NCBI GenBank assembly: GCA_028713935.1
Contig: JAQTNI010000034.1
Location: forward strand, 1-14,607
Reading direction: 5' to 3'
Origin: Candidatus Iainarchaeum sp.
GTDB lineage: Archaea; Iainarchaeota; Iainarchaeia; Iainarchaeales; GCA-2688035
Length of the DNA stretch: 14,607 nucleotides
The notes beneath the pieces were generated by a model. It saw only the letters and a list, made by a program, of their open reading frames with translations. It was not told the origin of the DNA and searched no databases. Both the position numbers and the translations under genes were made by a program. How positions within the stretch are numbered: position 1 is the first letter of the stretch; every line of letters begins with the position of its first letter. This document shows, in pieces, positions 1 to 14,607 of this stretch.

Positions 1-870
1 TTCTTTTCCCCAGCTGATTGCATTGATTACTTTGCCGCCGCCTGCGCTCCAATAAACAGGCAATCCGCTTTCCCTAATCTCTTCAACATCAATCACTGCG
101 TTCATCATTTCTTTTTTCCTGCATCTTTTGCCTACTGATTCAATCAAATAATGGGCATTTGCGCAATTTTCTTCTGTAACAGAAAAAACCATGTTCCAGT
201 CCTTGTTCACCAAGCCCAGCTTTATTTTTGCAATCCACTGCGGAACCATTTTTAATCTGTATTCGTAAAAAGGGTTGCTTCTTGTCAACTGGAAAATTTC
301 TTCTGCAGAAATTCTTGTTGGATAATCAAAGCCCATTGCAAAAATTCTTATTTCTTTCAAGTCTTTTTCTGAAGCAACCTGCTTTCCATATGGCGCGCCT
401 GGGCCGTCCACTACCATAATGTTAATTCCTCCGTAAATCGCCCTTATTGCGGATTCAGAGATTTTCATTCCAAGCTCTGCAATTTTTTCAATTGTGTAAT
501 TTGTTTCAAACAATTCATTCAAGGCAACAACCAGCGCGGCTGCCCCTGCATCGCTGCTTCCGGAATAAATTGCATAATTTGTTGATTCCACTTTTATGCC
601 AAATTTTTTTCCGGAATCTTTTTGGAAAATTTTCAAAACCTCTGCAACGCTTCTTGTCCTTTCTTCCGGCAGTTTTTCCTTGCCGACAACAAAAGAGTCC
701 AGTTTCCCAGAATTTGTTTTCTCAACAATTGTTTCTGTCCTTGTCTGCTCTTTTAAATCAGTAACAGCCAATCCCATTGTGTCATGCAATGGCCATCTGT
801 TATCTCTTACACTTGAAACAAAAACAATCGGAATAGTTGGATATGCAACAGCTTTTACTTTTTCAACCAT
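1..870 (-). CDS. GHMP-family enzyme of the mevalonate diphosphate decarboxylase superfamily, mevalonate-3-kinase-like; C-terminus runs off the left edge
   Basis: Absent from the ORF track because it is open to the window edge. From ATG (rc of 868-870) the minus strand reads 290 sense codons to position 1 with no stop: MVEKVKAVAYPTIPIVFVSS...STNYAIYSGSSDAGAAALVVAL...ISESAIRAIYGGINIMV...PVYWSAGGGKVINAISWGKE. GHMP phosphate-binding motif SGSSDAGAA at 535-564. SD-like GGTGAGG (rc of 879-885) lies 8 nt before the ATG. SAGGG (34-48) occupies the place of the canonical DAGPN of true decarboxylases. Confidence 0.75.
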   Translation of the reverse strand, partial: MVEKVKAVAYPTIPIVFVSSVRDNRWPLHDTMGLAVTDLKEQTRTETIVEKTNSGKLDSFVVGKEKLPEERTRSVAEVLKIFQKDSGKKFGIKVESTNYAIYSGSSDAGAAALVVALNELFETNYTIEKIAELGMKISESAIRAIYGGINIMVVDGPGAPYGKQVASEKDLKEIRIFAMGFDYPTRISAEEIFQLTRSNPFYEYRLKMVPQWIAKIKLGLVNKDWNMVFSVTEENCANAHYLIESVGKRCRKKEMMNAVIDVEEIRESGLPVYWSAGGGKVINAISWGKE

Positions 871-914: not shown

Positions 915-1799
915 TTATCTCCCAGCTCTTCTTCGCCTGCGAAGGGGGGTTATTTTTGTATTTGCCCTTCTCTGCAACCTTACTTTTTCCCCTCTTTCTG
1001 TATGCATAAGCGTCCCAAGAAGGTCTTTTGCATGTTGCAGAACCAAGCTGGGCCTTTCATTTGGAGACAGCTTTTTTACTCTTTCAAGGCTTGTGTTTCC
1101 AGTCAAGACTAATGCAGACCTCAGTCCATTTGCTTTTGCATCCTTTATTCCGCTTAAAGAGTCTTCTATTACCCATTGCCTTCCAGGCTTTATTCCTTGC
1201 GCCAAAAGCCTTTTTGATACTTCTGCAAACATTCCCGCTTTTTTTACCTTGTCTTCCCCATAAAATAAACTTTCCTGCCTGAAATAATGCATTATTCCGG
1301 CTTCTTTCATGAATGCATCTGCATCAACTTTTTTTCCAGCAGTTACCAGTACAATAGGAATTTCTTTCTTGTTTGCCCAGTAAAGCATTTGCCTTATTTT
1401 TTCAAGCCTCGGTTCTTTTGCTTTTATTACAATTGGCTTTTTTCCAGGCACTTGCAGGCTGCCATGTGTCCTTAGAGCGTCAAATCTTTTTACAGCTTCA
1501 TCAATTAAGCTCCATTCTTGGGCAGTTAAACCCTGCCTTTTTTCTGCAACAATTCTTGGGCTTGTTTTTGCTTGTTCAAAAGAAATTCTTTCTTTTTGCA
1601 TTACATACAGCCCAGAAAGAAAATCCCTTGTAATGTGAAATTCTCCTTCGCTCCTCAACTGGTACATTTGCGGAGTGATATTAACTGCAATTCCAACAGA
1701 GCCAAGCGCTTTTGTTGCAACTTCGCACTGCCTTCTTGTATGGTCAATCAGCACTCCTTCCAAATCAAAAATAAAAGCAATTCGTTTTTGTTCCGGCAT
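915..1799 (-). CDS. HAD-superfamily hydrolase (subfamily IA-like, large cap insertion)
   Basis: ATG start with GGGGT SD-like element upstream. HAD motif I FIFDLEGVL, motif II IVLVTAG, motif IV VIEDSLSGIKDAKANG. About 110 aa lie between motifs I and II. Arg-rich C-terminal tail (PLRRRRRAGR). Confidence 0.8.
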   Translation of the reverse strand: MPEQKRIAFIFDLEGVLIDHTRRQCEVATKALGSVGIAVNITPQMYQLRSEGEFHITRDFLSGLYVMQKERISFEQAKTSPRIVAEKRQGLTAQEWSLIDEAVKRFDALRTHGSLQVPGKKPIVIKAKEPRLEKIRQMLYWANKKEIPIVLVTAGKKVDADAFMKEAGIMHYFRQESLFYGEDKVKKAGMFAEVSKRLLAQGIKPGRQWVIEDSLSGIKDAKANGLRSALVLTGNTSLERVKKLSPNERPSLVLQHAKDLLGTLMHTERGEKVRLQRRANTKITPLRRRRRAGR

Positions 1800-1837: not shown

Positions 1838-2581
1838 TTATATTTTAAGGATTGCCCAAGTAGGATTTCCCTTATGCCCAAATTTGAATCCAAACGTTTC
1901 ATAATACCTCTGAAGCTTTTGTATATCCCCTGTGGATTTAACTGCCCTTGCTATTCGTATTTCGTGGATTCCTTCTTTTCTTGCAATTTGAATTGCCTCA
2001 TTTAATACTATCCTAAAAAAGTTCAGGCCTGTTCTTGTGGCTTGTACAGGCACAAAGTTTGTTTGTTGTGGTGCATTAAAATTAAGCGGTCTTTCTTCGG
2101 CTTCTATGTCAGCCATTGTCATTCTAACATGCCTAAAATCACTTATTTTTTCAGGCAGTTTTGCCCCAAACTCAACTGCATTCGCCTCTTCTATATCCAC
2201 TATTCTTCCTAGTTCGCTGATATGTGCCCAAAAAACACTTGGCATTCCTGCCCTGTCAAGGCTTACTATTTGAACCATATAATTATTTGCATGCACAGGA
2301 AATTTTAAAACTCCAAATCGTTTGCAGTTTATTCTATAAAATTTTGTTGTAATGTTACTGTACTCTGTTTTTGCCCAGCTCTCTTTTTTCCATTCCCTGT
2401 TTTTTCTAAAGTGGGAATAATCATCATAAATTTCCTCTGCCCTTTTCCTAAATGTTTTTTCTTCTTCTAGTGCCAGTTGCGTACGTTGCAACCTTGGCAT
2501 TGCTCTTCTTTTTGGGTTGGCTCTTTGCAGTTCCTTATACGTCTGCTCCCTTTCAGTAGCTTTCCTGGGTGGTTTTTGCAT
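1838..2581 (-). CDS. Hypothetical protein with basic N-terminus and GNAT-like (acyl-CoA N-acyltransferase fold) C-terminal region
   Basis: ATG preceded by GAGGGGGAT SD. C-terminal pattern VQATRTGLNFFRIVLNEAIQIARKEGIHEIRIA...LQRYYETFGFKF resembles GNAT motif A/B (RxxGxx ... YexxGF). The fold assignment is by eye only. Confidence 0.45.
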   Translation of the reverse strand: MQKPPRKATEREQTYKELQRANPKRRAMPRLQRTQLALEEEKTFRKRAEEIYDDYSHFRKNREWKKESWAKTEYSNITTKFYRINCKRFGVLKFPVHANNYMVQIVSLDRAGMPSVFWAHISELGRIVDIEEANAVEFGAKLPEKISDFRHVRMTMADIEAEERPLNFNAPQQTNFVPVQATRTGLNFFRIVLNEAIQIARKEGIHEIRIARAVKSTGDIQKLQRYYETFGFKFGHKGNPTWAILKI

Positions 2582-2654: not shown

Positions 2655-3059
2655 TTACTCCACAACTTTGAATTTGTATCCATAAGCAATTGCCCCTTCC
2701 GGGTCAATATCGCTTATTTTTCTGAATTTTTTTGTTACTCTGGCCCCTGTCTTGATTTTTTCTTTTTTTGAATCCACTATCTGCGCTAATATTTTTGCCT
2801 TGTTTTCCATTTCAATTATTGCGAGAAAATAAGGAGTTTCATTTTCAAATCCAAAGGGCGCTACAGACACTTCTGTCCAGGAAACAATTTTTCCAGTGAA
2901 AGGAGTGTCTTTTTCCACTAATTTTCCTTTTCTCCTGCAGTTCGGGCAAATGCTTCTTTGAGGAAAAAAGCTTGTTTTGCAGTTTTCACAATAATTTCCT
3001 TTCAAGTAATACCTTTCAGGGTATTTTCTCCATTGCAATGGCAATGCATTGTGCACCAT
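2655..3059 (-). CDS. DUF35 Zn-ribbon/OB-fold protein, scaffold subunit of the archaeal thiolase/HMG-CoA synthase complex
   Basis: 134 aa. Zn ribbon CENC...CPNC followed by an OB-fold-like C-terminus. Perfect SD AAGGTGAT 5 nt before the ATG. Same strand as the thiolase and HMG-CoA synthase genes. Confidence 0.85.
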   Translation of the reverse strand: MVHNALPLQWRKYPERYYLKGNYCENCKTSFFPQRSICPNCRRKGKLVEKDTPFTGKIVSWTEVSVAPFGFENETPYFLAIIEMENKAKILAQIVDSKKEKIKTGARVTKKFRKISDIDPEGAIAYGYKFKVVE

Positions 3060-3071
3060 TCAAATCACCTT

Positions 3072-4343
3072 TTAGTTTTTTATAGAATATGCAAATTTGT
3101 TTCCTGTTTTTTCTCTTGAAATTAATCCTTTTTTAAGGAGGCTTGTTAAAATTTCTCTTATGTGCCTTTGGTTTCTTTTGCAAAAGTTTGAAATGTTCTC
3201 TGCGTTCAGTTCAATATTTTTCAGGCGTAATTCTTTAAGTTTTTGAAGATAGTGTATTGTTGCTTCATTTCTTGGATAAAATTCTAAGCCTTCAACATAT
3301 CTGTCCAGCACTTGCTTGAGCTTTTCTTGTTTTCTTTGCAAGCCAAAACCAATTTTTTCATAAAATTTTTGCTGGTTTTCTTTGCCAGTTATTCTTATTT
3401 CCCAGTTAATTGTTATTTCTTCAGCATTCTTGGCGTTTTTCTTGTAATTGCAAATTTTTGATTTTATTTCAAATTCTTCAAGAATTTTTTTGATATCAAT
3501 CAATATTTGGGGTTCTTGCCTTGTTTGCTCTTTCGGATAGGTTATTGGCGCTGTGAAGCTGACGCAGCGGCTATTGTGATGGTTGAAAACAGTTCCGTCA
3601 TCATCGTACAAGCGTTGCAGCAAAGCAATTTTGATTTTTTTATCCGTAGAACCCAAAAATATTTTCGGGATTCCTTGATATGGCTTGTAATTTTTGTTTC
3701 CATCTTCCAGCCCAATTGTTTTCAAAATAACGCCAATTATTTTTGGAAAAATCACGCAGGGAGCCCCACTTAATGAATGATGCCTTGCAAAATTAACTTC
3801 TCCAAAACAAGATTGCACTGCTTTTGTAAAACTTTCAATTTGCTCTTTTTCCCTGTTGAAATACCAAATTCTGCACTTGTTTTTTTCAATTCCCCCATCT
3901 CCCAAGACTGCGCCAACAACAAGCGCAAATTCGGGAGTTATTCTAAATGGCAGTTTTGGATTTTTTATGCTTTCTTTTGATTTCATTGTTTTTAATTCAA
4001 TTGTGTTTTTCTGAATCTGTTTTTCACTGATTTTCAAAATTCTTGCAATTTTTAACACTAAAGGCAAGGGCAATCCGCTTCTTTCAACGCGGTATCTCCT
4101 TGTGCTTTCGCCTCTCTTTAAACCCAAGGCTTTTGATATTTTTCCAAAAGAGCCATATTTCTTTTTCAATTCAAAAAAAATTTTTTCTCTGAATTCTGGC
4201 TTTAATTTTATTCTAACCTGCTCTTTGGGCAAATCAAACAAAGATATTTCTGCCATTTTTGAATCCCCAAAAATATTATTTTTTGTTATTTTAATTGCTT
4301 TTGAGACTCTGCGTTTCCACTGTTTTTCATCCAACAAGTTCAT
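3072..4343 (-). CDS. Free-standing double-motif LAGLIDADG homing endonuclease with N-terminal HTH and C-terminal winged-helix regions
   Basis: Two LAGLIDADG motifs about 100 aa apart: LVVGAVLGDGG (3891-3923) and LLQRLYDDDGT (3591-3626), both keeping the metal-binding acidic residue. N-terminal HTH-like FGKISKALGLKRGESTRRY. C-terminal wHTH-like HIREILTSLLKKGLISREKTGNKFAY. Own ATG 9 nt after the thiolase stop and own TAA 12 nt before the DUF35 ATG. Confidence 0.85.
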   Translation of the reverse strand: MNLLDEKQWKRRVSKAIKITKNNIFGDSKMAEISLFDLPKEQVRIKLKPEFREKIFFELKKKYGSFGKISKALGLKRGESTRRYRVERSGLPLPLVLKIARILKISEKQIQKNTIELKTMKSKESIKNPKLPFRITPEFALVVGAVLGDGGIEKNKCRIWYFNREKEQIESFTKAVQSCFGEVNFARHHSLSGAPCVIFPKIIGVILKTIGLEDGNKNYKPYQGIPKIFLGSTDKKIKIALLQRLYDDDGTVFNHHNSRCVSFTAPITYPKEQTRQEPQILIDIKKILEEFEIKSKICNYKKNAKNAEEITINWEIRITGKENQQKFYEKIGFGLQRKQEKLKQVLDRYVEGLEFYPRNEATIHYLQKLKELRLKNIELNAENISNFCKRNQRHIREILTSLLKKGLISREKTGNKFAYSIKN

Positions 4344-4352
4344 AATTTTTAC

Positions 4353-5513
4353 CTATGTTTTTTTCATTATGTGAATAACCGCAGTTGCGCCTGAGCCGCC
4401 AACATTGTGGGCCATTCCAATTTTTGCATTTTTTACTTGCCGTTTTCCTGCTGTTCCGTTTAGCTGTTCAAAGATTTCAATTGCCTGTTTTACACCTGTA
4501 GCGCCAACAGGATGCCCGCATTTTAACCCGCCTGAAGGGTTAACTGAAATTTCTGAATTCAAGGAAGTTTTTCCTTTTTCAACTGCTTTTCCGCCTTCCC
4601 CCTTTTTGAAAAAACCAAGGTCTTCTATTGCCAAAATGTTTGCTATTGAAAAGCAATCATGCAATTCAACTAAATCAATGTCTTTTGGTTCCAACTTGGT
4701 TTTTTCATAAGCCTCTTTAACAGCAATTTTTGTTGCCGCCATTTCTGTCAAAGATTTTCTTCCAGTAAGGGCAAGTGAATCAGATGCCTGTGTTGAAGCA
4801 ATTATTTCCACTGCATTTTCCAGCCCCATTTTTTTTGCTTTTTCTGTTTCACACAAAATCAATGTTGCGGCTCCGTCTGTTATTGGTGAACAATCAAGCA
4901 GTTTTAAGGGGCTTGCCACATAGCCTGATTGCATTACGTCTTCCACTGTTATTTCTCTTTGAAACTGGGAATGAGGATTATTAACCCCGTTTTTATGTGC
5001 CTGCACTGAACACATTGCCATCTGCTCTTCTGTTGTGCCGAATTCTTCCATATGCCTTCTTGCCATTAATGCATAAAGCGAGGGAAATGTTGCGCCATGG
5101 AACAATTCTGTTTCCTGGTCTCCTGCTCCGCCAAGCGCAAAGCTTGCAGCTTCAGTTGAAACCTCTGTCATTTTTTCAATTCCGCCAACAGCAACAATGT
5201 CATATGTTCCTGAAGAAATCGCGAGTATTCCGCTTCTAAGTGCAACTCCGCCTGAAGCGCAGGCAGCCTCTACTCTTGTTGAAGGAATCGGATTCAACCC
5301 CAACTGGTCTGCAATCAAAGCCCCAATATGTTCCTGCCCAATGAGCCTTCCAGAAGCCATGCAGCCTCCGTAAATTGCCTCTATTGTTTTTCCCTCTATT
5401 TTTGCGCTTTCAATTGCCTTTACGCCTGCTTCCGCTATCAGTTCGCGAAAACTTTTATCCCAGTGTTCACCAAATTTTGTTAATCCGGTTCCTATTATTG
5501 ATACGCTTCTCAT
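4353..5513 (-). CDS. Acetyl-CoA C-acetyltransferase (archaeal acetoacetyl-CoA thiolase)
   Basis: 386 aa. Active-site Cys context RVEAACASGG, C-terminal CGHPVGATG and NVGGSGAT motifs. SD AGGTGGGG before the ATG. Confidence 0.93.
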   Translation of the reverse strand: MRSVSIIGTGLTKFGEHWDKSFRELIAEAGVKAIESAKIEGKTIEAIYGGCMASGRLIGQEHIGALIADQLGLNPIPSTRVEAACASGGVALRSGILAISSGTYDIVAVGGIEKMTEVSTEAASFALGGAGDQETELFHGATFPSLYALMARRHMEEFGTTEEQMAMCSVQAHKNGVNNPHSQFQREITVEDVMQSGYVASPLKLLDCSPITDGAATLILCETEKAKKMGLENAVEIIASTQASDSLALTGRKSLTEMAATKIAVKEAYEKTKLEPKDIDLVELHDCFSIANILAIEDLGFFKKGEGGKAVEKGKTSLNSEISVNPSGGLKCGHPVGATGVKQAIEIFEQLNGTAGKRQVKNAKIGMAHNVGGSGATAVIHIMKKT

Positions 5514-5522
5514 TTCCCCACC

Positions 5523-6566
5523 TTACAATTCCTTTATTTTTTTCCTGTGCCTTGCATATTCCGCATAATCAACGTATTCTTTTTCTTTTATCATTTCAAG
5601 CACCGGCACTTTTGCCCTTTTCTTTTCAATGTTTTTTGTTGCAGTAATTGAAAAAGCATCACTCCCTGACCCTGACCCATAGCTTGCGACAAGGATTTTT
5701 TCTCCCGGCTTTGCAATGTCAAGCACGCTGCAGAGCCCTATCATGCTGCTTCCCGAATAAGTGTTTCCAATCATTGGGGTTAACAATCCCTGAATTATTT
5801 TTTTTTCATCAATTCCAAAGTTTTTTGCAATCTGCTTTGGAAATTTTCCGTTTGGCTGGTGGAAAACAGCGTAATCAAAATCATTCGGATTCATTTTTAT
5901 TTTTGCAAGCAATCCTTTCACTGCGCCAGTAATATGCTTGAAATAAGCAGGCTCTCCAGTAAACCTGCCAGCATGCTGTGGAAACTCCGCGTGCTGCCTT
6001 CTCCAGAAATCAGGAGTGTCTGTTGTGAAAGAATAAGTGTCATTTATTTCCGCGATTACTTCGTCTTCTTTTCCGCCTATTATCAATGCCCCTGCTCCGC
6101 TTCCAGCAGTGAATTCAAGGGCATCATTCGGCCTTCCCTGTGCAGTATCAGTCCCAATTGCCATTCCATATTCAATCATTCCGCTTTTTACCAGGCCCAT
6201 GCACATCTGCACTCCAGCTGTCCCTGCCTTGCATGCAAACTGCAAATCAGCAGCCATTAATTCCGGAGAAGCCTGTATTGCGTCTCCCACAATTGCCGCT
6301 GTCGGCTTTACCGCATAAGGATGGCTTTCACTGCCAACATAAATAGCGCCTATTTTTTCAGGCAAAATTTTTGCTGTTTCCAATGATTTTCTTGCAGCTT
6401 CAACTGCAAGTGTGCAGGCATCTTCATCAGCAGCAGCCAGTGCCTTTTCCTTTACGCCTATTCCCGCGGAAATTTTTTTCCCGTCTTTTTTCCAGACCCT
6501 TGCAATTTCCTCAACAGTAATTCTTCTCAGGGGAACCTGCACTCCATAACCGACAATTCCAGCCAT
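5523..6566 (-). CDS. Hydroxymethylglutaryl-CoA synthase (archaeal type)
   Basis: 347 aa. Catalytic Cys context LQFACKAGTAG, HQPNGKFP, and NTYSGSS near the C-terminus. Adjacent to the thiolase with a 9-nt gap. Confidence 0.93.
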   Translation of the reverse strand: MAGIVGYGVQVPLRRITVEEIARVWKKDGKKISAGIGVKEKALAAADEDACTLAVEAARKSLETAKILPEKIGAIYVGSESHPYAVKPTAAIVGDAIQASPELMAADLQFACKAGTAGVQMCMGLVKSGMIEYGMAIGTDTAQGRPNDALEFTAGSGAGALIIGGKEDEVIAEINDTYSFTTDTPDFWRRQHAEFPQHAGRFTGEPAYFKHITGAVKGLLAKIKMNPNDFDYAVFHQPNGKFPKQIAKNFGIDEKKIIQGLLTPMIGNTYSGSSMIGLCSVLDIAKPGEKILVASYGSGSGSDAFSITATKNIEKKRAKVPVLEMIKEKEYVDYAEYARHRKKIKEL

Positions 6567-6568
6567 TA

Positions 6569-7135
6569 TTATCCTCTCCGCTGATTTTTTTTAATAATTA
6601 ACTTTGCTGTTCTCTCACGAGCCCTGTTAAATGTGTCCAATTTTTTGCTTCCAATAATGCTTGCCAAAGCGCTATTGTTAATCGCTTGTATAACAGGCAA
6701 CATGGCCCTAGAAATTTCTATTTCACTATTTGGATCCAGTGTTTCAAAATGAGTTATTTCCCTTTCCAAGGCAACCTTTAACCTTTGCCCTTTATCGCGT
6801 ACTGCAGTTGCAACAACATTCGGCAGATCATTAGCTGTTGTTTCTGTTACAATTGGGACATACTCTGCCAGAATCCTAAACAGTCCTTTTGCACTTTTTG
6901 TTGGAATCTTCCAAAAATGTGCTGCGTGCTCAATTAAAATAGAATTTGCCACTAACTGTCTGGCTTTTTGTTGTTCTTGTTCAGGAAGTTTGCGTGTCAA
7001 TCTATCAATTAAATGCAATTGCGATTCAAGAACTAAGTTAGGGCCTAGTTCAGGAGTGCCACTATGCCGAGCTGTTATTTGTCTTAATCTACTTGATAAT
7101 GCCCCTTTTGGCTTTTCTCTTTTAGGTTCAAGCAT
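6569..7135 (-). CDS. Hypothetical alpha-helical protein (188 aa), probable paralogue of 12543-13085
   Basis: The track ORF extends to 7171. I prefer the ATG at 7135 because GGAGG sits 9 nt upstream and ATGCTTGA (7128-7135) overlaps the reductase stop. TAA ends 2 nt before the HMG-CoA synthase ATG. No recognisable catalytic or binding motif. Confidence 0.7.
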   Translation of the reverse strand: MLEPKREKPKGALSSRLRQITARHSGTPELGPNLVLESQLHLIDRLTRKLPEQEQQKARQLVANSILIEHAAHFWKIPTKSAKGLFRILAEYVPIVTETTANDLPNVVATAVRDKGQRLKVALEREITHFETLDPNSEIEISRAMLPVIQAINNSALASIIGSKKLDTFNRARERTAKLIIKKNQRRG

Positions 7136-8423
7136 TTTGTTTTGCCTCCAGTATTTCTTTTGCCCTGTCAACCTTAATATTCTTTTCTGAAATCATTTTT
7201 TCAGCTACTTCGTCAATTTGTTTTCCTTTTGCGCCAGCAAGCACTGCAATGTTTTTTGCATGCAGCTTCATATGCCCGCGCTGCACTCCTTCTGTTGCCA
7301 GAACCCTCATTGCAGCAATGTTGTTTGCCAATCCAACACAAGCCATTATTTCAGCCAACTCCCCTGCACTTTTAACCCCAAGGATTTTCACTGCAATTTT
7401 TGCAATGGGATGTGATTTTGTTGCTCCTCCCACAAGGCCGACTGCAAGGGGCAATTCAATTTCTCCAACAAGATTTCCTTCTTTGTCCTTATAATATTTT
7501 GTCAATGGCTTGTATTTTCCCTTATTTTTCCAGCATGCAAAAGTATGCGCCCCTGCTTCAATTGCTCTCCAGTCCTGGCCAGTTGCAATTGCCACTGCAT
7601 CTATTCCGTTCATTATTCCCTTGTTGTGTGTGCAGGCGCGAAAAACATCTGCTTCCGCAAAGGCATATGCATTAAGGATTGCTTCAACAATTTCTTCTCC
7701 TTTCAAAGAGCTTTCCCTGAAACTTTCTTCCAGGGCTTTTTTTGAAAAAACGGCTTTTGCCTTTACTGTCCTGTAAACAGCCAGATTTGAAATTATTCTC
7801 AACAATACTTTTCCGCTGGTTATTTCCTCTATTTTTGGGGTTATTGCCTCGCACATTGTGTTGATTGCGTTTGCCCCCATTGCGTCCCTTACATCGACAA
7901 GCAATTCAACAATAAGCATTTTTCCTTTTATTGTTTTCAAAACCCTTGCTTCCAATTTTTTTGCCCCGCCCCCAAATTTTACTAGGGTTTGGTCCATTGA
8001 ATTTGCCTTTTCAAGCAATTCTTTTTTTGCCTTCAAAATTTTTTTTCTTGCCTCTTCAGGCTTTTTTATTCCAGTAACCTGAATCTGCCCAATCATCAAT
8101 GGTTCAGATGCCTTTGCTTCAAAGCCTTCTGAAGCCCTTGTAATCTGCGCTGCCTTGCTTGCAGCCGCAACAACGCTCGGCTCTTCCAATGCCATTGGCA
8201 CCAGATAATCTTTTTTGTTTATTCTGAAGTTTGTCGCTATTCCCAATGGAAGTTGCTGCACTGCAACAACATTTTCAATCATCCTGTTTGCCTGTTCAAA
8301 ATCAAGCGCTGCAAATTTTTTCAGCTGCAAGGTTTCTTCTTCGCTTAATTGTGCAAATTCCTTTACAATCGCCAAGCGTTCTTCCAAATTTTTCTTATAA
8401 AACTCTGAAATGTTTGATTCCAT
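7128..8423 (-). CDS. hmgA: HMG-CoA reductase, class II (soluble, bacterial/Thermoplasma/Archaeoglobus type)
   Basis: Class II signatures LPLGIATNFRINKKDYLVPMALEEPSVVAAASKAA, DAMGANAIN, THNKGIMNGIDA, ATEGVQRGHMKLHA. No membrane domain. The track start at 8432 is TTG; ATG at 8423 (MESNISEFYKK) is preferred. Confidence 0.92.
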   Translation of the reverse strand: MESNISEFYKKNLEERLAIVKEFAQLSEEETLQLKKFAALDFEQANRMIENVVAVQQLPLGIATNFRINKKDYLVPMALEEPSVVAAASKAAQITRASEGFEAKASEPLMIGQIQVTGIKKPEEARKKILKAKKELLEKANSMDQTLVKFGGGAKKLEARVLKTIKGKMLIVELLVDVRDAMGANAINTMCEAITPKIEEITSGKVLLRIISNLAVYRTVKAKAVFSKKALEESFRESSLKGEEIVEAILNAYAFAEADVFRACTHNKGIMNGIDAVAIATGQDWRAIEAGAHTFACWKNKGKYKPLTKYYKDKEGNLVGEIELPLAVGLVGGATKSHPIAKIAVKILGVKSAGELAEIMACVGLANNIAAMRVLATEGVQRGHMKLHAKNIAVLAGAKGKQIDEVAEKMISEKNIKVDRAKEILEAKQNA

Positions 8424-8428
8424 AAGTG

Positions 8429-9778
8429 TCAAGCCCCCAGCAATACATCGTGCCTGTTCAGGCCTGTTTCTTCGGTTTTGCTGTTTCTTTGTTTTTTTTC
8501 CTTCAAAAATTGCTGTATTTCCTTTACTGCGTTTTTTGCGGACTGCACTGCATGCACAATTGTTTTCTGCGAGTTTATCGCATCCCCTGCTAAAAAAACT
8601 CCGTGCAGTTCAGTGCTGCAGATTCCCTCTTTGAGGGGCTTTCCTTGCAGCAGGCTTGCCTTGAAAACTGTTTCGTCAAATTCCTGCCCAATTGCAAGAA
8701 CAGCAATTTCAGCTTCCATTTCAATTTCTTCCCCTCTAGAAACAAATTCCTCTTTTTTGATTTCCAGTTTCTGGAATTTTATTTTTTCAAGTTTTTTGGT
8801 TCCAATAAATTCAATTGGGGAAAGCAGGTATTCAAATTTTATGCCCTCTTCAATTGCCTCGTTATACTCTTTTTTCCTGCAGGGCATGAATTCAAGGTTT
8901 TTCCTGTAAGCAATCGTAACATCAAACCCCATTCTCAATGCAGTCCTTGCGCAGTCCATTGCAGTGTCCCCTCCCCCTACAACAACGCATTTTTTTCCCC
9001 TGCCCTGCCTGCCATTTCCATGGCAATATTTTTCCAGGAAGGAATTCCAATAAAAAATTCCTTCAAGCTCTTTTCCTTTTGCATCAAGCTGTTTTGCATG
9101 GCTCTCGCCCGTTGCAATTAACACGGCATCAAATTCTGAAAGTATTTCGCTGAGTGTTTTTTTCCCGCCTATCCCAAAGTTTTTTTCCATTTCAATGCCC
9201 TGATTTTGCATCCATTTTACCTGTTCTTCAAAAACCTTTTTCGGAATCCTGTAGCCGGGAATTGCATTAATTGCAAGGCCTCCAAAATTGCCTTGGGCTT
9301 CAAAAATTTTTCCTTTTATCCCGATTTTTCTCAGTTCAATTGAAGCCGCAATTCCCGCAGGGCCGGAACCGATTATTGCAATGCTGTTTTTTGAAGTGCT
9401 GTCATTAATGTTTTTCATTTCGGAATTTTCAACTGCAAACCTTTCAAGTGCCCTGATTGAAATTGCCTCTCCTTTTTTTGCAAGAACACAGCCTCCTTCG
9501 CATTGCTGCTCTGCATTGCAGGCCCTGCAAGTAAGGCATGGCAAAGAGTCCTGTTCAAGGATTGTTTGCAGCGCGCCCTGAAAATTTTCTTCACAGATTT
9601 TTTTTATAAATTCCTTGCAATTCACGCCTGCAGGGCAGCCAGTTACACAGCCGGGATTTGCGCATTGCAGGCATCTTTGCGCTTCCTTCAAGGCTTTTTC
9701 CCTTGAAAAGCACTGTTCTATTTCATTAAAATTGCCAATTCTTTCTTCAACCCGCAATTTTTCCATTTTTTCCTGCAT
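8429..9778 (-). CDS. GltD/SudA/NfnB-family NAD(P)H-dependent Fe-S flavoprotein oxidoreductase (glutamate synthase small-subunit-like)
   Basis: N-terminal Cys clusters CLQCANPGCVTGC and CLTCRACNAEQQCEGGC. Two dinucleotide folds, IAIIGSGPAGIAAS and CVVVGGGDTAMDCARTA. TGA stop lies 5 nt before the reductase ATG. The track start at 9784 is GTG. ATG at 9778 is preferred but the start is uncertain because the AGGTG SD is only 3 nt away. Confidence 0.85.
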   Translation of the reverse strand: MQEKMEKLRVEERIGNFNEIEQCFSREKALKEAQRCLQCANPGCVTGCPAGVNCKEFIKKICEENFQGALQTILEQDSLPCLTCRACNAEQQCEGGCVLAKKGEAISIRALERFAVENSEMKNINDSTSKNSIAIIGSGPAGIAASIELRKIGIKGKIFEAQGNFGGLAINAIPGYRIPKKVFEEQVKWMQNQGIEMEKNFGIGGKKTLSEILSEFDAVLIATGESHAKQLDAKGKELEGIFYWNSFLEKYCHGNGRQGRGKKCVVVGGGDTAMDCARTALRMGFDVTIAYRKNLEFMPCRKKEYNEAIEEGIKFEYLLSPIEFIGTKKLEKIKFQKLEIKKEEFVSRGEEIEMEAEIAVLAIGQEFDETVFKASLLQGKPLKEGICSTELHGVFLAGDAINSQKTIVHAVQSAKNAVKEIQQFLKEKKQRNSKTEETGLNRHDVLLGA

Positions 9779-9850
9779 AAACACCTAGTCTTTGCATTTT
9801 GCCCTCTATGGCAAAAATCCCATATATTTGAACAATTTTTTTTACAAAGG
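9779..9850 (-). promoter_or_regulatory. Candidate promoter and leader of the mevalonate operon
   Basis: On the minus strand, CAAATATATG (rc of 9821-9830) is a TATA-like box about 47 nt upstream of the ATG, preceded by an A-run. A 7-bp hairpin TTTTGCC-ctctat-GGCAAAA (9797-9816) lies in the presumed leader. Confidence 0.3.
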
Positions 9851-9992
9851 CATTATTTGAGAAAATAAAAAGTGAAACTGCAAATGCAATAAGGCAATCC
9901 TGACTTAAAAGTGCCCAAAGCCAATTAAAAAGCTTACTGTTTCAACGAAACAAAAATCGGCAATAAACGAATTCTTTGGTTTTTTTGGCTTT

Positions 9993-10089: not shown

Positions 10090-10443
10090 TTAATCTATTC
10101 TCAGGCTCATGTTCTCTGTTGTCTGGTCTTTTACTTCATTAAAGCTGCCTTCGTGTTCTGTCAAAATCAGCCTTACTGGCTCTTCTGTTGAGGAAGCAGC
10201 ATTTTTCGGCCAGATGTCAAAATAAAGTGTTTTTGTTTCCCCTGCCTTTAAGGATTCAATTCTTTTTATGTCACTGGTTTTATAGCCAACCCTGTCAAGG
10301 CTTAACCTTGAACCGAGCTTTATTTCAAGAGTCAGAATCGCATTTGCCTTGTCCTTGTTTGCAAGGTCAACTTTCAATTCAACAGGCCCTCTTCTCGCCA
10401 GAATCATCCTGAAAGGAGAAAACTTTGCATTAATTGCAATCAT
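10090..10443 (-). CDS. Hypothetical small cytoplasmic beta-sandwich-like protein (CARDB/NEW3-like pattern)
   Basis: 117 aa. ATG with GGGTGGA SD. Alternating hydrophobic pattern: VELKVDLANKDKANAILTLEIKL ... LKAGETKTLYFDIWP ... PVRLILTE. No signal peptide. The fold guess is by eye. Confidence 0.55.
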   Translation of the reverse strand: MIAINAKFSPFRMILARRGPVELKVDLANKDKANAILTLEIKLGSRLSLDRVGYKTSDIKRIESLKAGETKTLYFDIWPKNAASSTEEPVRLILTEHEGSFNEVKDQTTENMSLRID

Positions 10444-10607: not shown

Positions 10608-11093
10608 GTGTTTTTGCAGAAAGCGGAATTTCCAGAATCCGGCCTTGTAAGAAAGACTTTCATTGTGAGACAGATGGATTTGCCTCCAAGCGTAAAGCTC
10701 ACAAAGCGTTCTCTCCTGAGATGGTTTGCGCTTTCCTTCGGTTTAATCAGCAGTGGTGAATCAAGGGACACTGTTCTGCTTGTCCTGGATGCCTTGTTTT
10801 TCCTTCTTTTGTCTTCAAAATCAAGCCCTTCTACAACAGATGTCCAGGCCTGCATAAAGGAAAAATTCCAGAAAAAAATTTCCGAAAAGCTCATCCGCTA
10901 TCATCTTAACAGGCTTATTGAATCAGGCCTGCTTGTGCGCAGAAAAGCAAGGTATTTCATCAACAACAACCCTTATGCAGAGCCGAACAATCTCAAAGAG
11001 TCTTTTGTGCACTGGTTTAGGCAGCCTGCAAACACTGCAATGTCTGACATTGAAACAGTCCTTGGCTCTCTTTCGGAAGCCTACAAAAAATAA
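10608..11093 (+). CDS. Winged-helix DNA-binding protein (putative transcription regulator)
   Basis: wHTH pattern ISEKLIRYHLNRLIESGLLVRRKARYFI. Start uncertain: GTG 10608, TTG 10614 (AGGTG 5 nt upstream) or ATG 10674. TAA at 11091-11093. Confidence 0.6.
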   Translation: MFLQKAEFPESGLVRKTFIVRQMDLPPSVKLTKRSLLRWFALSFGLISSGESRDTVLLVLDALFFLLLSSKSSPSTTDVQACIKEKFQKKISEKLIRYHLNRLIESGLLVRRKARYFINNNPYAEPNNLKESFVHWFRQPANTAMSDIETVLGSLSEAYKK

Positions 11094-11646: not shown

Positions 11647-12453
11647 ATGTTCACAATTGTTGTTTCCAAATCCGACCTCGCTGGAATGAATTTTTTTCCT
11701 CTGTTCACTGAAAATTTTGGCTTCAGGGAAACAGGCAGAATTTTTGATGGCAGCCCGATTTTTGCATTTGGGAATTTTGAATTGCTCACAATCAATTCCG
11801 TGCAGATTTTTGCTGATTTTTTGGATAAAAGAAAAACAGATTTTTTTATTTTTGCCTCAAAGCATTCAAGCACTGCAAAAAAACCCTCTCTTACAGCGCA
11901 TGCAATTGGCAATTTTTCAAAGGCAGAATTTGGCGGAAAAGATTTTGAATTATGCCCCTCAAGCGCTTTTCTTTCGCGCAATTACCTTCTAAGCCTGAAA
12001 GAACAGCGGGAAAGCCTGGTCTTGCCTGACTTTGAGATTTGCCTTGAAGCAACCCATCACGGGCCTTTTTTGAAAACGCCAAGCATTTTCATTGAGCTTG
12101 GCAGTTCTGAAAAAGAATGGTTATTAAAAAAGCCTGCTGAAGCAGTTGTTGAGACAATTCTCAAAAAAACTTCTTTGCATTCAAATGCGGTTCCCTGCAT
12201 TGGGATTGGCGGAGGCCATTACGCCCCAGGCTTTACAAAACGCGTTCTGAATGAAAATTTTGCTTTTTCCCATATTGCAGCGGAATATTCTCTTCCGCAT
12301 TTCACGGAATTTTCTTTGCAGAAAATGGTTTCAAATTCAATTGAAAAGCCGGAATTGATTGTTGCAGACAGGAAAGGCCTTGGAAAATCAGTGCAAAAAA
12401 ATCGCATCCAGCAGATTCTGCAGGAATCAGGAATTGAAATACTGTTTGTTTGA
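11647..12453 (+). CDS. dtdA: D-aminoacyl-tRNA deacylase, archaeal DTD2 type
   Basis: 268 aa, colinear with the DTD2 family: FASKHSS...PSLTAH, LEATHHGP, IELGSSEKEW, IGIGGGHYAP. ATG start with no SD, so possibly leaderless. Confidence 0.9.
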   Translation: MFTIVVSKSDLAGMNFFPLFTENFGFRETGRIFDGSPIFAFGNFELLTINSVQIFADFLDKRKTDFFIFASKHSSTAKKPSLTAHAIGNFSKAEFGGKDFELCPSSAFLSRNYLLSLKEQRESLVLPDFEICLEATHHGPFLKTPSIFIELGSSEKEWLLKKPAEAVVETILKKTSLHSNAVPCIGIGGGHYAPGFTKRVLNENFAFSHIAAEYSLPHFTEFSLQKMVSNSIEKPELIVADRKGLGKSVQKNRIQQILQESGIEILFV

Positions 12454-12503
12454 AATAATGGGCAATTCCTATAAGAAAACCCTGTTCTGTAAACAATGCT
12501 TAA

Positions 12504-12535
12504 CCCAATTCCTGCATTTCTTTGGGCTGTTTTTT
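12504..12535 (+). terminator. Possible dtdA terminator (weak hairpin plus T6 tract)
   Basis: CCCAA (12504-12508) and TTGGG (12522-26) form a 5-bp stem, followed by TTTTTT at 12530-12535. Archaeal termination typically uses oligo-T tracts. Confidence 0.3.
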
Positions 12536-12542
12536 AAGACAC

Positions 12543-13085
12543 TTAACCTTGTGCCCTACTTTCAATTCTACGTGCAATGTCAAATGCCTTTTTAGTGTCG
12601 TTAGTAAATTTTTCAAAACTATCTTTTCCCAACACTTGTTCCAGTGCTGCCAGATTCCGCGTGATTGCCATTCTGAGAATCATTGTATCTACTACTGTCA
12701 TTGCCTTGTCCTCAGTGTGTTTTAATTTCCGTAAGTCTTCTCTGGCGAAGGCAACAGCGGCCTCGCTTATTTCGTTCGCACACATAGCGCTTCCCAAGGA
12801 AATGTTTACATCCCTTATCAGGTTTTTGAGGATTTCCTTCTTTGTTTTACAGGTAACAGGCCCTTTGTAAGCTGCGAATATTCTCACCTGATTTGCCATC
12901 AACTTTCTTGCCCTATTATAATCTGGTTTTGCTAACCCTATTTTTGAAAGCAAATATAAACGAATTTCCAGAAGCGTTTGGATTTGGCGCATTTGCCTGG
13001 AGGGCTTGTATCTCTCAAGAACGGACTGTATTCTGGCGCGAAATGCCCTCTTATAAGCAGGATTTGCTTTTTTTTCTTTTGGCAT
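12543..13085 (-). CDS. Hypothetical alpha-helical protein (180 aa), probable paralogue of 6569-7135
   Basis: ATG start 29 nt downstream of the idsA stop. Colinear by-eye similarity to the 188-aa protein: ARKLMAN vs ARQLVAN at the same position, CANEISEAAVAFAREDLRKLK vs TANDLPNVVATAVRDKGQRLK, and NLAALEQVLGKDSFEKF vs NSALASIIGSKKLDTF. Confidence 0.7.
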   Translation of the reverse strand: MPKEKKANPAYKRAFRARIQSVLERYKPSRQMRQIQTLLEIRLYLLSKIGLAKPDYNRARKLMANQVRIFAAYKGPVTCKTKKEILKNLIRDVNISLGSAMCANEISEAAVAFAREDLRKLKHTEDKAMTVVDTMILRMAITRNLAALEQVLGKDSFEKFTNDTKKAFDIARRIESRAQG

Positions 13086-13114
13086 TTATTTTCCTTTTTA
13101 ATTGGATAGTCAGT

Positions 13115-14185
13115 TCAGATTTTTCTTTCAATTAAGTAATCCGCAAATTCTTTTAGTGTTTTTTTTGCATTGCTTTCTTTCAGGACAGGGCTTAGTTTTT
13201 TCCATGCGTTTTTTACAAGGGTTTTTGCTTTTTCCTTTGCATACTCAATTGAGCCATTTTTTTTGATTATTCCAATTGCCTCGTTAATCACTGCCTGTTC
13301 TGTTGGATGCGAATTTAAAATTTCAATCAACCTATTTCCATCGGCCTGGCCTGAATTTTTCAATGCGTGCAGCACCATTATTGTCCTTTTTCCCTCGTGA
13401 ATGTCTTCCCCGATTCCTTTTCCTTTCTGGAATTCCTCGCCAACAAGGTTCAGGACATCGTCCTGTATCTGGAAAGCAACGCCGATTGTTTCGCCGAATT
13501 TTCCCAGTGCCTTTTCCTGTTTTTCATTTGCATTTCCAAGTATTGCCCCGAGCTTTGCGGAGAATCTTGTTAAAACCCCTGTTTTATAAACGCACATCTG
13601 CAGGTATTCTTCTTCGGAAATTTCAGTTTTGTTGCCCCTGTGCCACCATATATCTATTGCTTGGCCCATGCTTACCCTTATCATTTCCTGTGCATACAAA
13701 TCATAAATTTTACTGATTTGTTTTTTCTTCAGTTTATAAGGGTTTTTGTAGAGCAAAGTCAATGGAATAAAGTACATTGCAGCCCCATCATTAATGGCAA
13801 CATCAAGGCCATAAAGCAGGTGAGTGCATTTTTTTCCGCGCCTTGTTTCAGAGCAGTCCTCTGCGTCATCCTCAATCAAGGTTCCATTATGGATAATTTC
13901 TACTATCGGCGCTATTTTTAGCGCCAATTCTTTTTTTCCGCCCACAGCCTCGCATGCAAGCATTGCCAATGCAGGCCTCAGCCTTTTTCCGCCCCTATCA
14001 AGCAATTCCCAGATTGGCTCTGCAGCGCTTTTTGTCATTGTTTCCTCATCATATGCAAAATCAGCCTTGTCAAGCGCGTATTCGAGCCATTTTTTTGTTA
14101 TTTTCCTCGGAAAAACTTTTTCAATTTCCCTGTCAATCAGGGGCTGGATTTTTTTCAAGTATTCTTCTATTCCCGCCAAAATCAC
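13115..14185 (-). CDS. idsA: (E)-polyprenyl diphosphate synthase (IdsA/GGPP synthase family; product chain length uncertain)
   Basis: GGKRLRP, first Asp-rich motif DDAED (13856-13870), second motif FQIQDDVLNL, then GEDIHEGKRT. The track start at 14185 is GTG. An SD-like AAGGTG overlaps it, so the exact start is uncertain. Confidence 0.88.
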   Translation of the reverse strand: MILAGIEEYLKKIQPLIDREIEKVFPRKITKKWLEYALDKADFAYDEETMTKSAAEPIWELLDRGGKRLRPALAMLACEAVGGKKELALKIAPIVEIIHNGTLIEDDAEDCSETRRGKKCTHLLYGLDVAINDGAAMYFIPLTLLYKNPYKLKKKQISKIYDLYAQEMIRVSMGQAIDIWWHRGNKTEISEEEYLQMCVYKTGVLTRFSAKLGAILGNANEKQEKALGKFGETIGVAFQIQDDVLNLVGEEFQKGKGIGEDIHEGKRTIMVLHALKNSGQADGNRLIEILNSHPTEQAVINEAIGIIKKNGSIEYAKEKAKTLVKNAWKKLSPVLKESNAKKTLKEFADYLIERKI

Positions 14186-14191
14186 ACCTTT

Positions 14192-14607
14192 TCAACCGAA
14201 TTTGACTAATTTTGTGATTTTTCCTTTTTTAATTATAATGCCTTTCCCTGTTGGAAACCTTAACTGCCCGTCAATCACTGTTTCATATTCAGCGCAGGGG
14301 TCAAGGCAGCTTATCCTAATTTTTGAATCTGCTTTTACAATAATTGGCTTTGGTTTTTTTCCCATCACATTGTACTGCACTATTTCAAAATTGCCTTTGA
14401 AAATTTTTTTTCCGCCAGCAGAAAGCGAATGCCCAGTGCTTCCTGTTGAAGTGCATGCAATTATTCCATCAGCGGAATTTTCAGAAATTTTTTTTTCATT
14501 AAGAAAGAGCGCATATTTGATTATTGCACCGCTTTTTTTGTTCACCAAAAGAACATCGTTTAATGCAGGGGGAACTTTTTTTCCGTCAATAATTGTTCCA
14601 ATGCGCT
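14192..14607 (-). CDS. nadK: NAD+ kinase, C-terminal part (N-terminus beyond the right edge)
   Basis: NAD kinase motif STGSTGHSLSAGG. The track start at 14548 is an internal TTG. The frame stays open to the window edge, reading RIGTIIDGKKVPPALNDVLLVNKK upstream. TGA stop lies 6 nt before idsA. Confidence 0.85.
   Translation of the reverse strand, partial: RIGTIIDGKKVPPALNDVLLVNKKSGAIIKYALFLNEKKISENSADGIIACTSTGSTGHSLSAGGKKIFKGNFEIVQYNVMGKKPKPIIVKADSKIRISCLDPCAEYETVIDGQLRFPTGKGIIIKKGKITKLVKFG

Follow-up and report, generated by a model that had tools for sequence, protein, structure and literature searches.

The window analysed here, a stretch of 14,607 nt, belongs to a metagenome-assembled genome of the Candidatus Iainarchaeum type (NCBI organism label ‘Candidatus ainarchaeum sp.’). 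It carries two small genes, encoding proteins of 180 and 188 amino acids (aa), which follow directly on genes of isoprenoid lipid synthesis: the first on the gene of an IdsA-type prenyl diphosphate synthase, the second on that of HMG-CoA reductase (HMGR). NCBI annotates both open reading frames (ORFs) as hypothetical proteins. We regard it as almost beyond doubt that the two are true paralogues of a new protein family, enriched in the gene clusters of the mevalonate (MVA) pathway. The features concerned are listed below in the order of transcription; the minus strand carries every gene discussed that is not marked +.

13115-14185, minus strand: IdsA-type short-chain prenyl diphosphate synthase (Pfam polyprenyl_synt, 9e-69), directly 5' of the 180-aa gene
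13086-13114, minus strand: 29-nt spacer from the IdsA stop codon to the ATG of the 180-aa gene, with AGGA about 9 nt upstream
12543-13085, minus strand: ORF of the 180-aa family member P0001 (NCBI PHD95_05600; same protein in NCBI and Logan)
12891-12911, minus strand: ARKLMAN motif in helix 3 of the 180-aa protein
12627-12629, minus strand: codon of Gly153 in the 180-aa gene, the invariant residue
7128-8432, minus strand: HMGR (Pfam HMG-CoA_red, 1e-110), directly 5' of the 188-aa gene
7128-7135, minus strand: 8-nt overlap ATGCTTGA of the 188-aa start codon with the HMGR stop codon, read directly
6569-7135, minus strand: ORF of the 188-aa family member P0002 (NCBI PHD95_05565, called there as 188 aa)
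6944-6964, minus strand: ARQLVAN, the paralogous copy of the ARKLMAN motif
6650-6652, minus strand: codon of Gly162 in the 188-aa gene, equivalent of Gly153
6564-6571, minus strand: 188-aa stop codon TAA (6571-6569), 2 nt, then the ATG (6566-6564) of HMG-CoA synthase (HMGCS); operon-tight packing
5523-6566, minus strand: HMGCS (68-93% identical to other Iainarchaeota HMGCS), directly 3' of the 188-aa gene; its counterparts in related loci have precomputed Pfam ACP_syn_III_C and HMG_CoA_synt_C matches

Homology and extent of the family

A first-pass annotation of the window had proposed that the two ORFs encode colinear members of one helical family, each placed directly after a different isoprenoid enzyme gene. 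Both ORFs are present on the minus strand and their positions behind IdsA and HMGR are as described. BLASTP aligned the proteins over their full length (residue 2/4 through 160/169), with 38 identities in 173 positions (22%), 47% positives, 31.6 bits and a pairwise E-value of 3e-6, which agrees with the guess of a fifth to a quarter identical positions. The Smith-Waterman comparison against shuffled sequences, suggested as a check at the time, gave a score of 88. Whole-sequence shuffles averaged 32.3±5.2 (maximum 60-63) and local-block shuffles 33.8±6.6 (maximum 72); none of the 6000 shuffles (3 x 2000) reached the real score (z = 8-11), and reversed sequences scored 34. ARKLMAN and ARQLVAN lie where they had been placed, with a small correction to the underlying DNA, which is identical at 17 of 21 nt and not at 16, and the remaining quoted motifs are in register in a MAFFT alignment.

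Further evidence came from a hidden Markov model (HMM) built on nine other family members, from which both window proteins were excluded, searched against a database of 8222 ORFs. It matched the 188-aa protein with an E-value of 8.8e-21 (73.6 bits, HMM positions 3-183 of 187) and the 180-aa protein with 4.7e-19 (68 bits, HMM positions 2-178), both matches spanning 94-97% of the profile. BLASTP, shuffles and the leave-out HMM thus all agree on paralogy. By score, the closest relatives of P0002 are P0003 and P0006 and those of P0001 are P0008 and P0004; because neither window protein is the other's best relative, the duplication must be old. From the full-length colinear alignment we infer that the paralogues share one topology. 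The start of the 188-aa protein is the ATG at 7135 rather than a TTG farther 5' at 7171, as supported by its N-terminus MLEPKREKPKG, which aligns with the MPKxKK start of the family.

The profile search and table of neighbouring genes that the first-pass annotation had called for extended the family. An exhaustive HMMER search of 1.84 billion representatives with the two-sequence profile found six further clusters (177-191 aa, end-to-end matches, E-values of 5e-7 to 1e-3), eight in all, and their contexts were tabulated. In addition, we mined 80 loci centred on HMGCS, taken from GTDB species representatives of Iainarchaeota (about 28 loci), Micrarchaeota and Methanobacteria. An iterated HMM run over 95 loci added members from L016, L024 (L024b) and L027 and converged at 11 distinct members, with an E-value of 1e-60 for the 180-aa protein. 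The tandem neighbour of L024b, L024a, is a borderline member (HMM E-value 0.011, hhalign probability 48%). A metagenome scan with the P0007/L016 pair retrieved one locus, 99% identical to P0007. Two candidates were rejected: a 188-aa ORF between UbiD and AcnX in L004 is unrelated, and a borderline match in L039 is an HD-domain protein. All members detected in MVA loci come from Iainarchaeota-type loci and none was detected by HMM in the HMGCS loci of Micrarchaeota or Methanobacteria; the family appears to be restricted to Iainarchaeota-type DPANN archaea.

No known relatives were found. Word-indexed homology searches with each protein and with the eight-member profile returned only self-matches and P0005. 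Neither the single proteins nor 12 aligned members had a consistent or significant match in Pfam, NCBIfam, PHROGs or PADLOC, relaxed E-values included; the scattered weak matches reached 0.0056 at best. Compared with all PDB chain sequences, the family profiles had no match (alignment A1) or noise at E-values of at least 0.1 (alignment A5), and a literature search found no description of the helical family or of the other genes sharing its intergenic positions. This is a previously undescribed protein family without known relatives; its newness lies at the level of the family, not of a demonstrated mechanism.

The 180-aa protein is predicted to be a soluble protein of seven helices, with an isoelectric point (pI) of 10.2 and a basic N-terminal tail, MPKEKKANPAYKRAF; the pI of the 188-aa protein is 10.3. 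All eight representatives checked are soluble and lack a transmembrane (TM) segment, with a pI of 9.8-10.3 and a Lys/Arg-rich N-terminus that usually begins with MPK. The sole invariant residue of the family is a Gly in the L-G-x-K-K-F/Y turn of helices 6/7. Helix 3 carries the motif A-x-x-L-x-A-(H/N/Q)-x-x-R, of which ARKLMAN is an instance, and a buried polar pair covaries (H/N/Q at position 65 with H/N at position 144). The rest of the conservation is hydrophobic periodicity only, a pattern that does not look like that of an enzyme.

An AF2 model of the 180-aa protein from eight sequences (pLDDT 80.6, pTM 0.71) places the helices at residues 9-25, 30-49, 53-73, 79-94, 107-120, 134-152 and 154-179. 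Foldseek searches of PDB and BFVD with this model returned nothing better than an E-value of 0.2 or a TM-score (TM) of 0.29. A first model from two sequences was poor (pLDDT 64) and its Foldseek output meaningless. The two best natural-protein matches, TIPE2/TNFAIP8 and apolipophorin III, are likewise up-and-down helical bundles of about 150-185 aa; the matches are not significant (E-values of 0.22-0.38, TM of 0.19-0.28, rmsd of 11-16 Å) and reflect a generic helical bundle only. An internal duplication within the protein was considered and rejected, as no internal repeat is present.

The family genes from L016 and L011 differ with a dN of 0.30 and a dS of about 2.0 (dN/dS about 0.15), which indicates that these are real coding genes under purifying, though weak, constraint. 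Orthologues from the same slot of L004 and L007 share 40% identity, as against 72-88% for 11 flanking pathway enzymes; judged by this pair of clusters, the family diverges three to four times faster than the adjacent enzymes. Metagenomic copies were identical in DNA, leaving no population-level variation to analyse.

Operon embedding and gene neighbourhood

Both genes of the window are packed tightly against their neighbours. A GGAGG lies 11-15 nt 5' of the 188-aa ATG, inside the 3' end of HMGR; CTGGAGGCAAAA is likewise found in L016, where the junction (slot) between HMGR and HMGCS is occupied, and is missing from L015, where it is empty. The 29-nt spacer between IdsA and the 180-aa gene is too short for a separate promoter. 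The tight packing, together with Shine-Dalgarno-like sites of their own, implies that the family genes are almost certainly transcribed together with HMGR/HMGCS and with IdsA, and they are probably translated in step with them.

Nine of the 11 members lie within the Iainarchaeal mevalonate supercluster or adjoin IdsA, in at least five distinct slots: after IdsA, HMGR/HMGCS, DUF35/MVK (mevalonate kinase), MVK/MVD-like and IPK/IDI2. Members mined from MVA loci are a biased sample. The six further representatives from the HMMER search were found by sequence alone, blind to context, and four of them (P0003, P0005, P0006 and P0008) are inside MVA clusters. The contexts are as follows.

P0003 and P0006 (L004 and L007 contexts): DUF35 on one side, a UbiE-like methyltransferase and mevalonate kinase on the other
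P0005: between DUF35 and a GHMP kinase, after which come a HAD hydrolase and an MVD-like gene
P0008: directly 5' of mevalonate kinase
P0004: outside isoprenoid context, between EF-1beta and an intein-bearing SMC/Rad50-like gene
P0007: outside isoprenoid context, with a DHH-family gene and an unknown ORF of 451 aa on one side and dCMP deaminase on the other
L016 member (from mining MVA loci): HMGR/HMGCS
L027 member (from mining MVA loci): MVK/MVD-like
L024 members, a tandem pair (from mining MVA loci): IPK/IDI2

The supercluster around P0003 and P0006 has the order GltD-HMGR-HMGCS-thiolase-DUF35-...-MVK-UbiX-UbiD-AcnX-IPK(-IDI2). Such an MVA supercluster makes up an estimated 1-2% or so of the genome, and the enrichment of the family in the MVA/isoprenoid supercluster is real. 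Members occur in clusters with a lower pathway of the AcnX/UbiD type (L004, L007, L024) and in those of the MVD-like type (window, L003, L027), which links the family to the pathway or the cluster generally and not to one enzyme variant.

Slot polymorphism and other genes of the cluster

In Iainarchaeota (loci L015-L041) the whole mevalonate pathway forms one co-directional supercluster; the Micrarchaeota and Methanobacteria loci retain only HMGCS-thiolase-DUF35. Junctions between core genes of the Iainarchaeota supercluster are either tight (<150 nt) or filled with lineage-specific small basic ORFs. Occupancy of the slots was as follows.

HMGR/HMGCS: 8 of 29 loci
HMGCS/thiolase: 15 of 30 loci
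Thiolase/DUF35: 8 of 21 loci
DUF35/MVK: 8 of 18 loci
UbiD/AcnX: 8 of 15 loci
MVK/UbiX: 0 of 15 loci

The occupants are mostly small, basic and mutually unrelated, with 72 singletons at a BLAST E-value of 1e-4. Among the window genome and its close relatives, the HMGR/HMGCS slot is filled by P0002 in the window and by a P0007-type gene in L016, and is empty in L015 and L017. The L016 gene (HMGCS 91% identical to that of the window) is 61% identical to the out-of-cluster P0007 and about 27% to P0002; HMGCS of L017, with its empty slot, is 85% identical. An hhalign comparison of the family with about 100 other slot ORFs, and with the two-TM family described next, found nothing.

This second slot-filling family comprises proteins of about 90-200 aa, apparently with two TM segments, that start with MNWKEF or MDWKEF and end with ...VKK (L019 2682-2996 and 3972-4385; L034 9319-9636, 9633-9998 and 11038-11328; L030 7154-7762). 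Its paralogues occupy the HMGR/HMGCS and HMGCS/thiolase slots of one genome, similar two-TM-like ORFs occur in L025, L027 and L028, and by hhalign it is unrelated to the helical family. A free-standing LAGLIDADG-type ORF of 423 aa, with a C-terminal TrmB-like winged helix-turn-helix (wHTH; weak, under the Pfam cut-off), splits thiolase and DUF35 in the window; in 13 of 21 related loci these two adjoin directly. Homologues lie in the thiolase/DUF35 slot of L029 (12245-13525) and the HMGR/HMGCS slot of L038 (7174-8163). Directly 5' of P0003, L004 encodes a very basic helical ORF of 77 aa (9738-9971, pI 11.4, C-terminus GKRPKKPRRRRV), for which no homologue was found in the other loci.

Phosphohydrolase-type slot genes of two kinds lie within the lower pathway. 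HD-motif proteins (HxxGH…HD…D) fill UbiD/AcnX or AcnXL/AcnXS (L007 14719-15609, L039 16979-17614, L030 13534-14286), and the UbiD/AcnX slots of L023, L024, L029 and L033 hold proteins that cluster with the HAD hydrolase family.

The remaining genes of the window are:

14192-14548, minus strand: C-terminus of NAD kinase (cut)
11647-12453, + strand: D-aminoacyl-tRNA deacylase, convergent with the 180-aa gene
10608-11093, + strand: winged-helix protein of 161 aa (weak HTH_12 and ArsR-like matches)
10090-10443, minus strand: 117-aa ORF, divergent to the winged-helix gene
8429-9784, minus strand: GltD-like Fe-S flavoprotein, abutting HMGR
4353-5513, minus strand: acetoacetyl-CoA thiolase, upper mevalonate module (2655-5513)
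3072-4343, minus strand: the inserted LAGLIDADG-type gene, within the same module
2655-3059, minus strand: DUF35/OB-fold partner, same module
1838-2581, minus strand: unknown 247-aa ORF
915-1799, minus strand: HAD hydrolase
1-870, minus strand: MVD/M3K-like GHMP enzyme (cut; Pfam MVD-like_N 2e-18, M3K_C 2e-5)

No mevalonate kinase gene lies within the window. The cluster ends here with the 247-aa ORF, the HAD hydrolase and the MVD/M3K-like enzyme, in place of which L017 has UbiX-UbiD-AcnX-IPK; closely related Iainarchaeota thus seem to differ in the type of their lower mevalonate pathway. A UbiE/SAM-methyltransferase-like protein of about 440 aa is conserved in the DUF35/MVK region of Iainarchaeal clusters, beside P0003, P0006 and P0008 (L007 10545-11891; L015 7762-9165; L023, L029, L031; L014 2-307). 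Its C-terminus (…GNVNWM(L/I)V…) resembles that of the 247-aa ORF (…GNPTWAILKI), and we know of no methylation step in the mevalonate pathway.

The flavoprotein, GltD/SudA-like and of the NADPH-dependent glutamate synthase small-subunit family, precedes HMGR in about 13 related loci (GltD>HMGR>) and may be a dedicated supplier of reductant for HMGR. Between the convergent 3' ends of the deacylase and the 180-aa genes, an imperfect 24-nt inverted repeat (12428-12451 / 12491-12514, 71% complementary, 39-nt loop) may serve as a terminator common to both. The winged-helix gene and the divergent 117-aa ORF form a conserved pair beside the supercluster (L007 19900-20373, L017, L025, L026, L027). The 161-aa protein, 62% identical between the window and L007, is a more conventional candidate for a regulator of the cluster.

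Possible roles of the helical family

That the family is functionally tied to isoprenoid lipid synthesis, as the first-pass annotation had concluded from two genes, is plausible. The neighbourhood statistic behind the idea is real, and the idea itself is weakened by the sparse occurrence of the family, by the L015/L016 slot and by the unrelated ORFs in the same junctions. We tentatively favour an accessory or adaptor protein that is dispensable, has no catalytic role and is co-translated with the enzymes of the pathway. The protein would be a helical bundle whose basic face and Lys/Arg tail at the N-terminus bind either an enzyme of the pathway or something anionic (a ligand, a lipid or a membrane surface), and it would act as an adaptor, stabiliser or modulator of the pathway and not as a catalytic step. 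Paralogues would serve different neighbours (IdsA, HMGR/HMGCS, or DUF35/mevalonate kinase), and the protein would be dispensable and readily swapped between lineages.

Several observations point this way. One invariant Gly, a covarying polar pair and otherwise hydrophobic periodicity suggest a non-catalytic helical bundle. The co-translation layout, the non-enzymatic conservation, the presence in several slots across both lower-pathway variants and a separate wHTH protein suggest an accessory role; that conserved winged-helix protein (10608-11093) lies beside the cluster in several genomes and leaves no need for the helical family to be the regulator. The two-TM proteins that fill the same slots elsewhere would fit slot genes that organise or anchor the pathway.

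As a working analogy, Voegeli et al. are said to have described in 2018 a DUF35/OB-fold scaffold protein in the archaeal acetoacetyl-CoA thiolase-HMG-CoA synthase complex. Like the helical proteins, DUF35 is small and encoded in the upper-mevalonate operon, and as a non-catalytic binder of enzymes it may illustrate what they do. Unlike them, it combines an OB fold with a zinc ribbon, is near-universal in archaea and has a fixed position; it is also 86% identical between L004 and L007, compared with the 40% of the helical family. The helical family, for its part, has an all-helical model and no OB_ChsH2_C or zf-ChsH2 match, resembling DUF35 neither in sequence nor in predicted fold, and the window has a DUF35 gene of its own.

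A number of points weigh against an accessory protein. A member is detectable in only about 7 of about 31 Iainarchaeal MVA loci, with 24 lacking one, and true subunits or scaffolds are usually conserved in presence and position, unlike this family. In L015, the nearest relative (HMGCS 93% identical), the gap between HMGR and HMGCS is 14 nt and the slot is empty. Members of the P0007 subfamily lie within the cluster in L016 and outside it in L011/L095, and two of the eight context-blind members (P0004 and P0007) lie beside translation or DNA-metabolism genes. With a median pI of 6-9.8, enzymes of Iainarchaeota tend to be basic in any case, so that the pI of 10 of the family says little, and the AF2 model is based on just eight sequences. 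Patchy presence and slot polymorphism together indicate that the family is cluster-associated but dispensable and positionally fluid.

These same features are what a selfish or effectively neutral filler gene would show, sitting between the genes of an essential, highly expressed operon and adding nothing to isoprenoid synthesis. Association with the cluster would then reflect a favoured landing or retention site at which genes are gained, lost and replaced. We hold this to be possible but doubtful. It accounts best for the slot polymorphism, seen among genomes with HMGCS 91-93% identical, and for the LAGLIDADG company (thiolase/DUF35 in the window and L029, HMGR/HMGCS in L038), and it fits the mutually unrelated ORFs in the slots (8/29, 15/30, 8/21, 8/18 and 8/15 loci) and the very fast divergence of the family. 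Free-standing LAGLIDADG homing-endonuclease genes share with the family the same intergenic slots and a presence/absence polymorphism among related genomes; unlike them, the helical proteins have no LAGLIDADG or other nuclease motif, almost no conserved polar residues and an all-helical structure without an alpha-beta core.

Against such a filler, a nuclease, transposase, integrase or toxin motif was not found with Pfam, PHROG or PADLOC, and no mechanism of insertion is evident. Flanking repeats are absent, with only short chance direct or inverted repeats beside both window genes. Three queries found no relatives on IMG/VR viral contigs, a search sensitive to close relatives only, and there was no PHROG match. 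The dN/dS of about 0.15 further shows that the protein sequence matters, and the paralogues, at about 22% identity, are of ancient and not of recent origin.

Rather unlikely in our view is a small nucleic-acid-binding regulator, encoded in the operon that it controls and binding DNA or mRNA, whose paralogues would control sub-operons or other loci. The pI of about 10 is in keeping with this, as is the N-terminal tail, whose net charge ranges from +4 to +6 across the eight representatives checked; just 4% of core enzymes have a tail that reaches +4 or more. Regulators typically outpace the enzymes that they control in evolution, turn over and adjoin varied targets, and the two out-of-cluster members adjoin DNA- and translation-related genes. 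However, no HTH, wHTH, ribbon-helix-helix or Zn-ribbon domain was detected in 12 members with Pfam and NCBIfam at E-values of up to 5, and Foldseek detected no DNA-binding fold, of which PDB contains many (for the best TetR chain the E-value was 3 and the TM 0.14). The helices are long (14-26 residues), unlike HTH units, and by our reading the turn with the invariant Gly misfits a classic HTH, as position 5 is not small and position 10 not hydrophobic. A conserved wHTH protein already lies beside the cluster, and transcription factors are not usually encoded in mid-operon with translational coupling.

One last candidate role, which concerns the 180-aa copy alone, is barely credible: that of the non-catalytic small subunit (HexA or HepS/GerC1 type) of a heteromeric prenyl diphosphate synthase, pairing with IdsA and setting chain length. 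Like HexA and HepS/GerC1, it is a small, all-helical, poorly conserved protein encoded directly 3' of a polyprenyl synthase gene in the same operon, and the L004/L007 members are followed by a UbiE-like methyltransferase, recalling the Bacillus order gerCA-gerCB(menH)-gerCC. Ten of the 11 members, however, are not beside a prenyl synthase, most having HMGR, HMGCS, DUF35 or mevalonate kinase next to them, and no comparable gene accompanies IdsA in other Iainarchaeota. The IdsA of the window fits homodimeric short-chain models (top NCBIfam matches IdsA_Meth, 266 bits, and GGPP synthase, 215 bits) far better than the heteromeric large subunits HepT (139) or HexB (129), and neither a PDB sequence, Pfam or NCBIfam match nor, among the best Foldseek matches, a prenyltransferase-fold chain was found.

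The slot polymorphism shows that an essential operon can serve as a hot spot of gene turnover, which bears on the assignment of function from gene neighbourhoods in reduced genomes and on the limits of guilt-by-association. The family also provides a concrete candidate accessory factor for archaeal isoprenoid synthesis, one for which neither sequence nor predicted fold revealed a relative. Few DPANN archaea besides Iainarchaeota retain the full lipid-precursor pathway. A bolder reading, which we consider improbable, is that the helical family and the two-TM ‘MNWKEF...VKK’ family together represent a new class of fast-evolving, non-catalytic organisers that hold the soluble enzymes of mevalonate and prenyl-diphosphate synthesis together in a metabolon close to the membrane, with paralogues specialised per enzyme. 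If this were true, the organiser proteins would amount to a lineage-specific channelling of lipid precursors in ultra-small DPANN cells.

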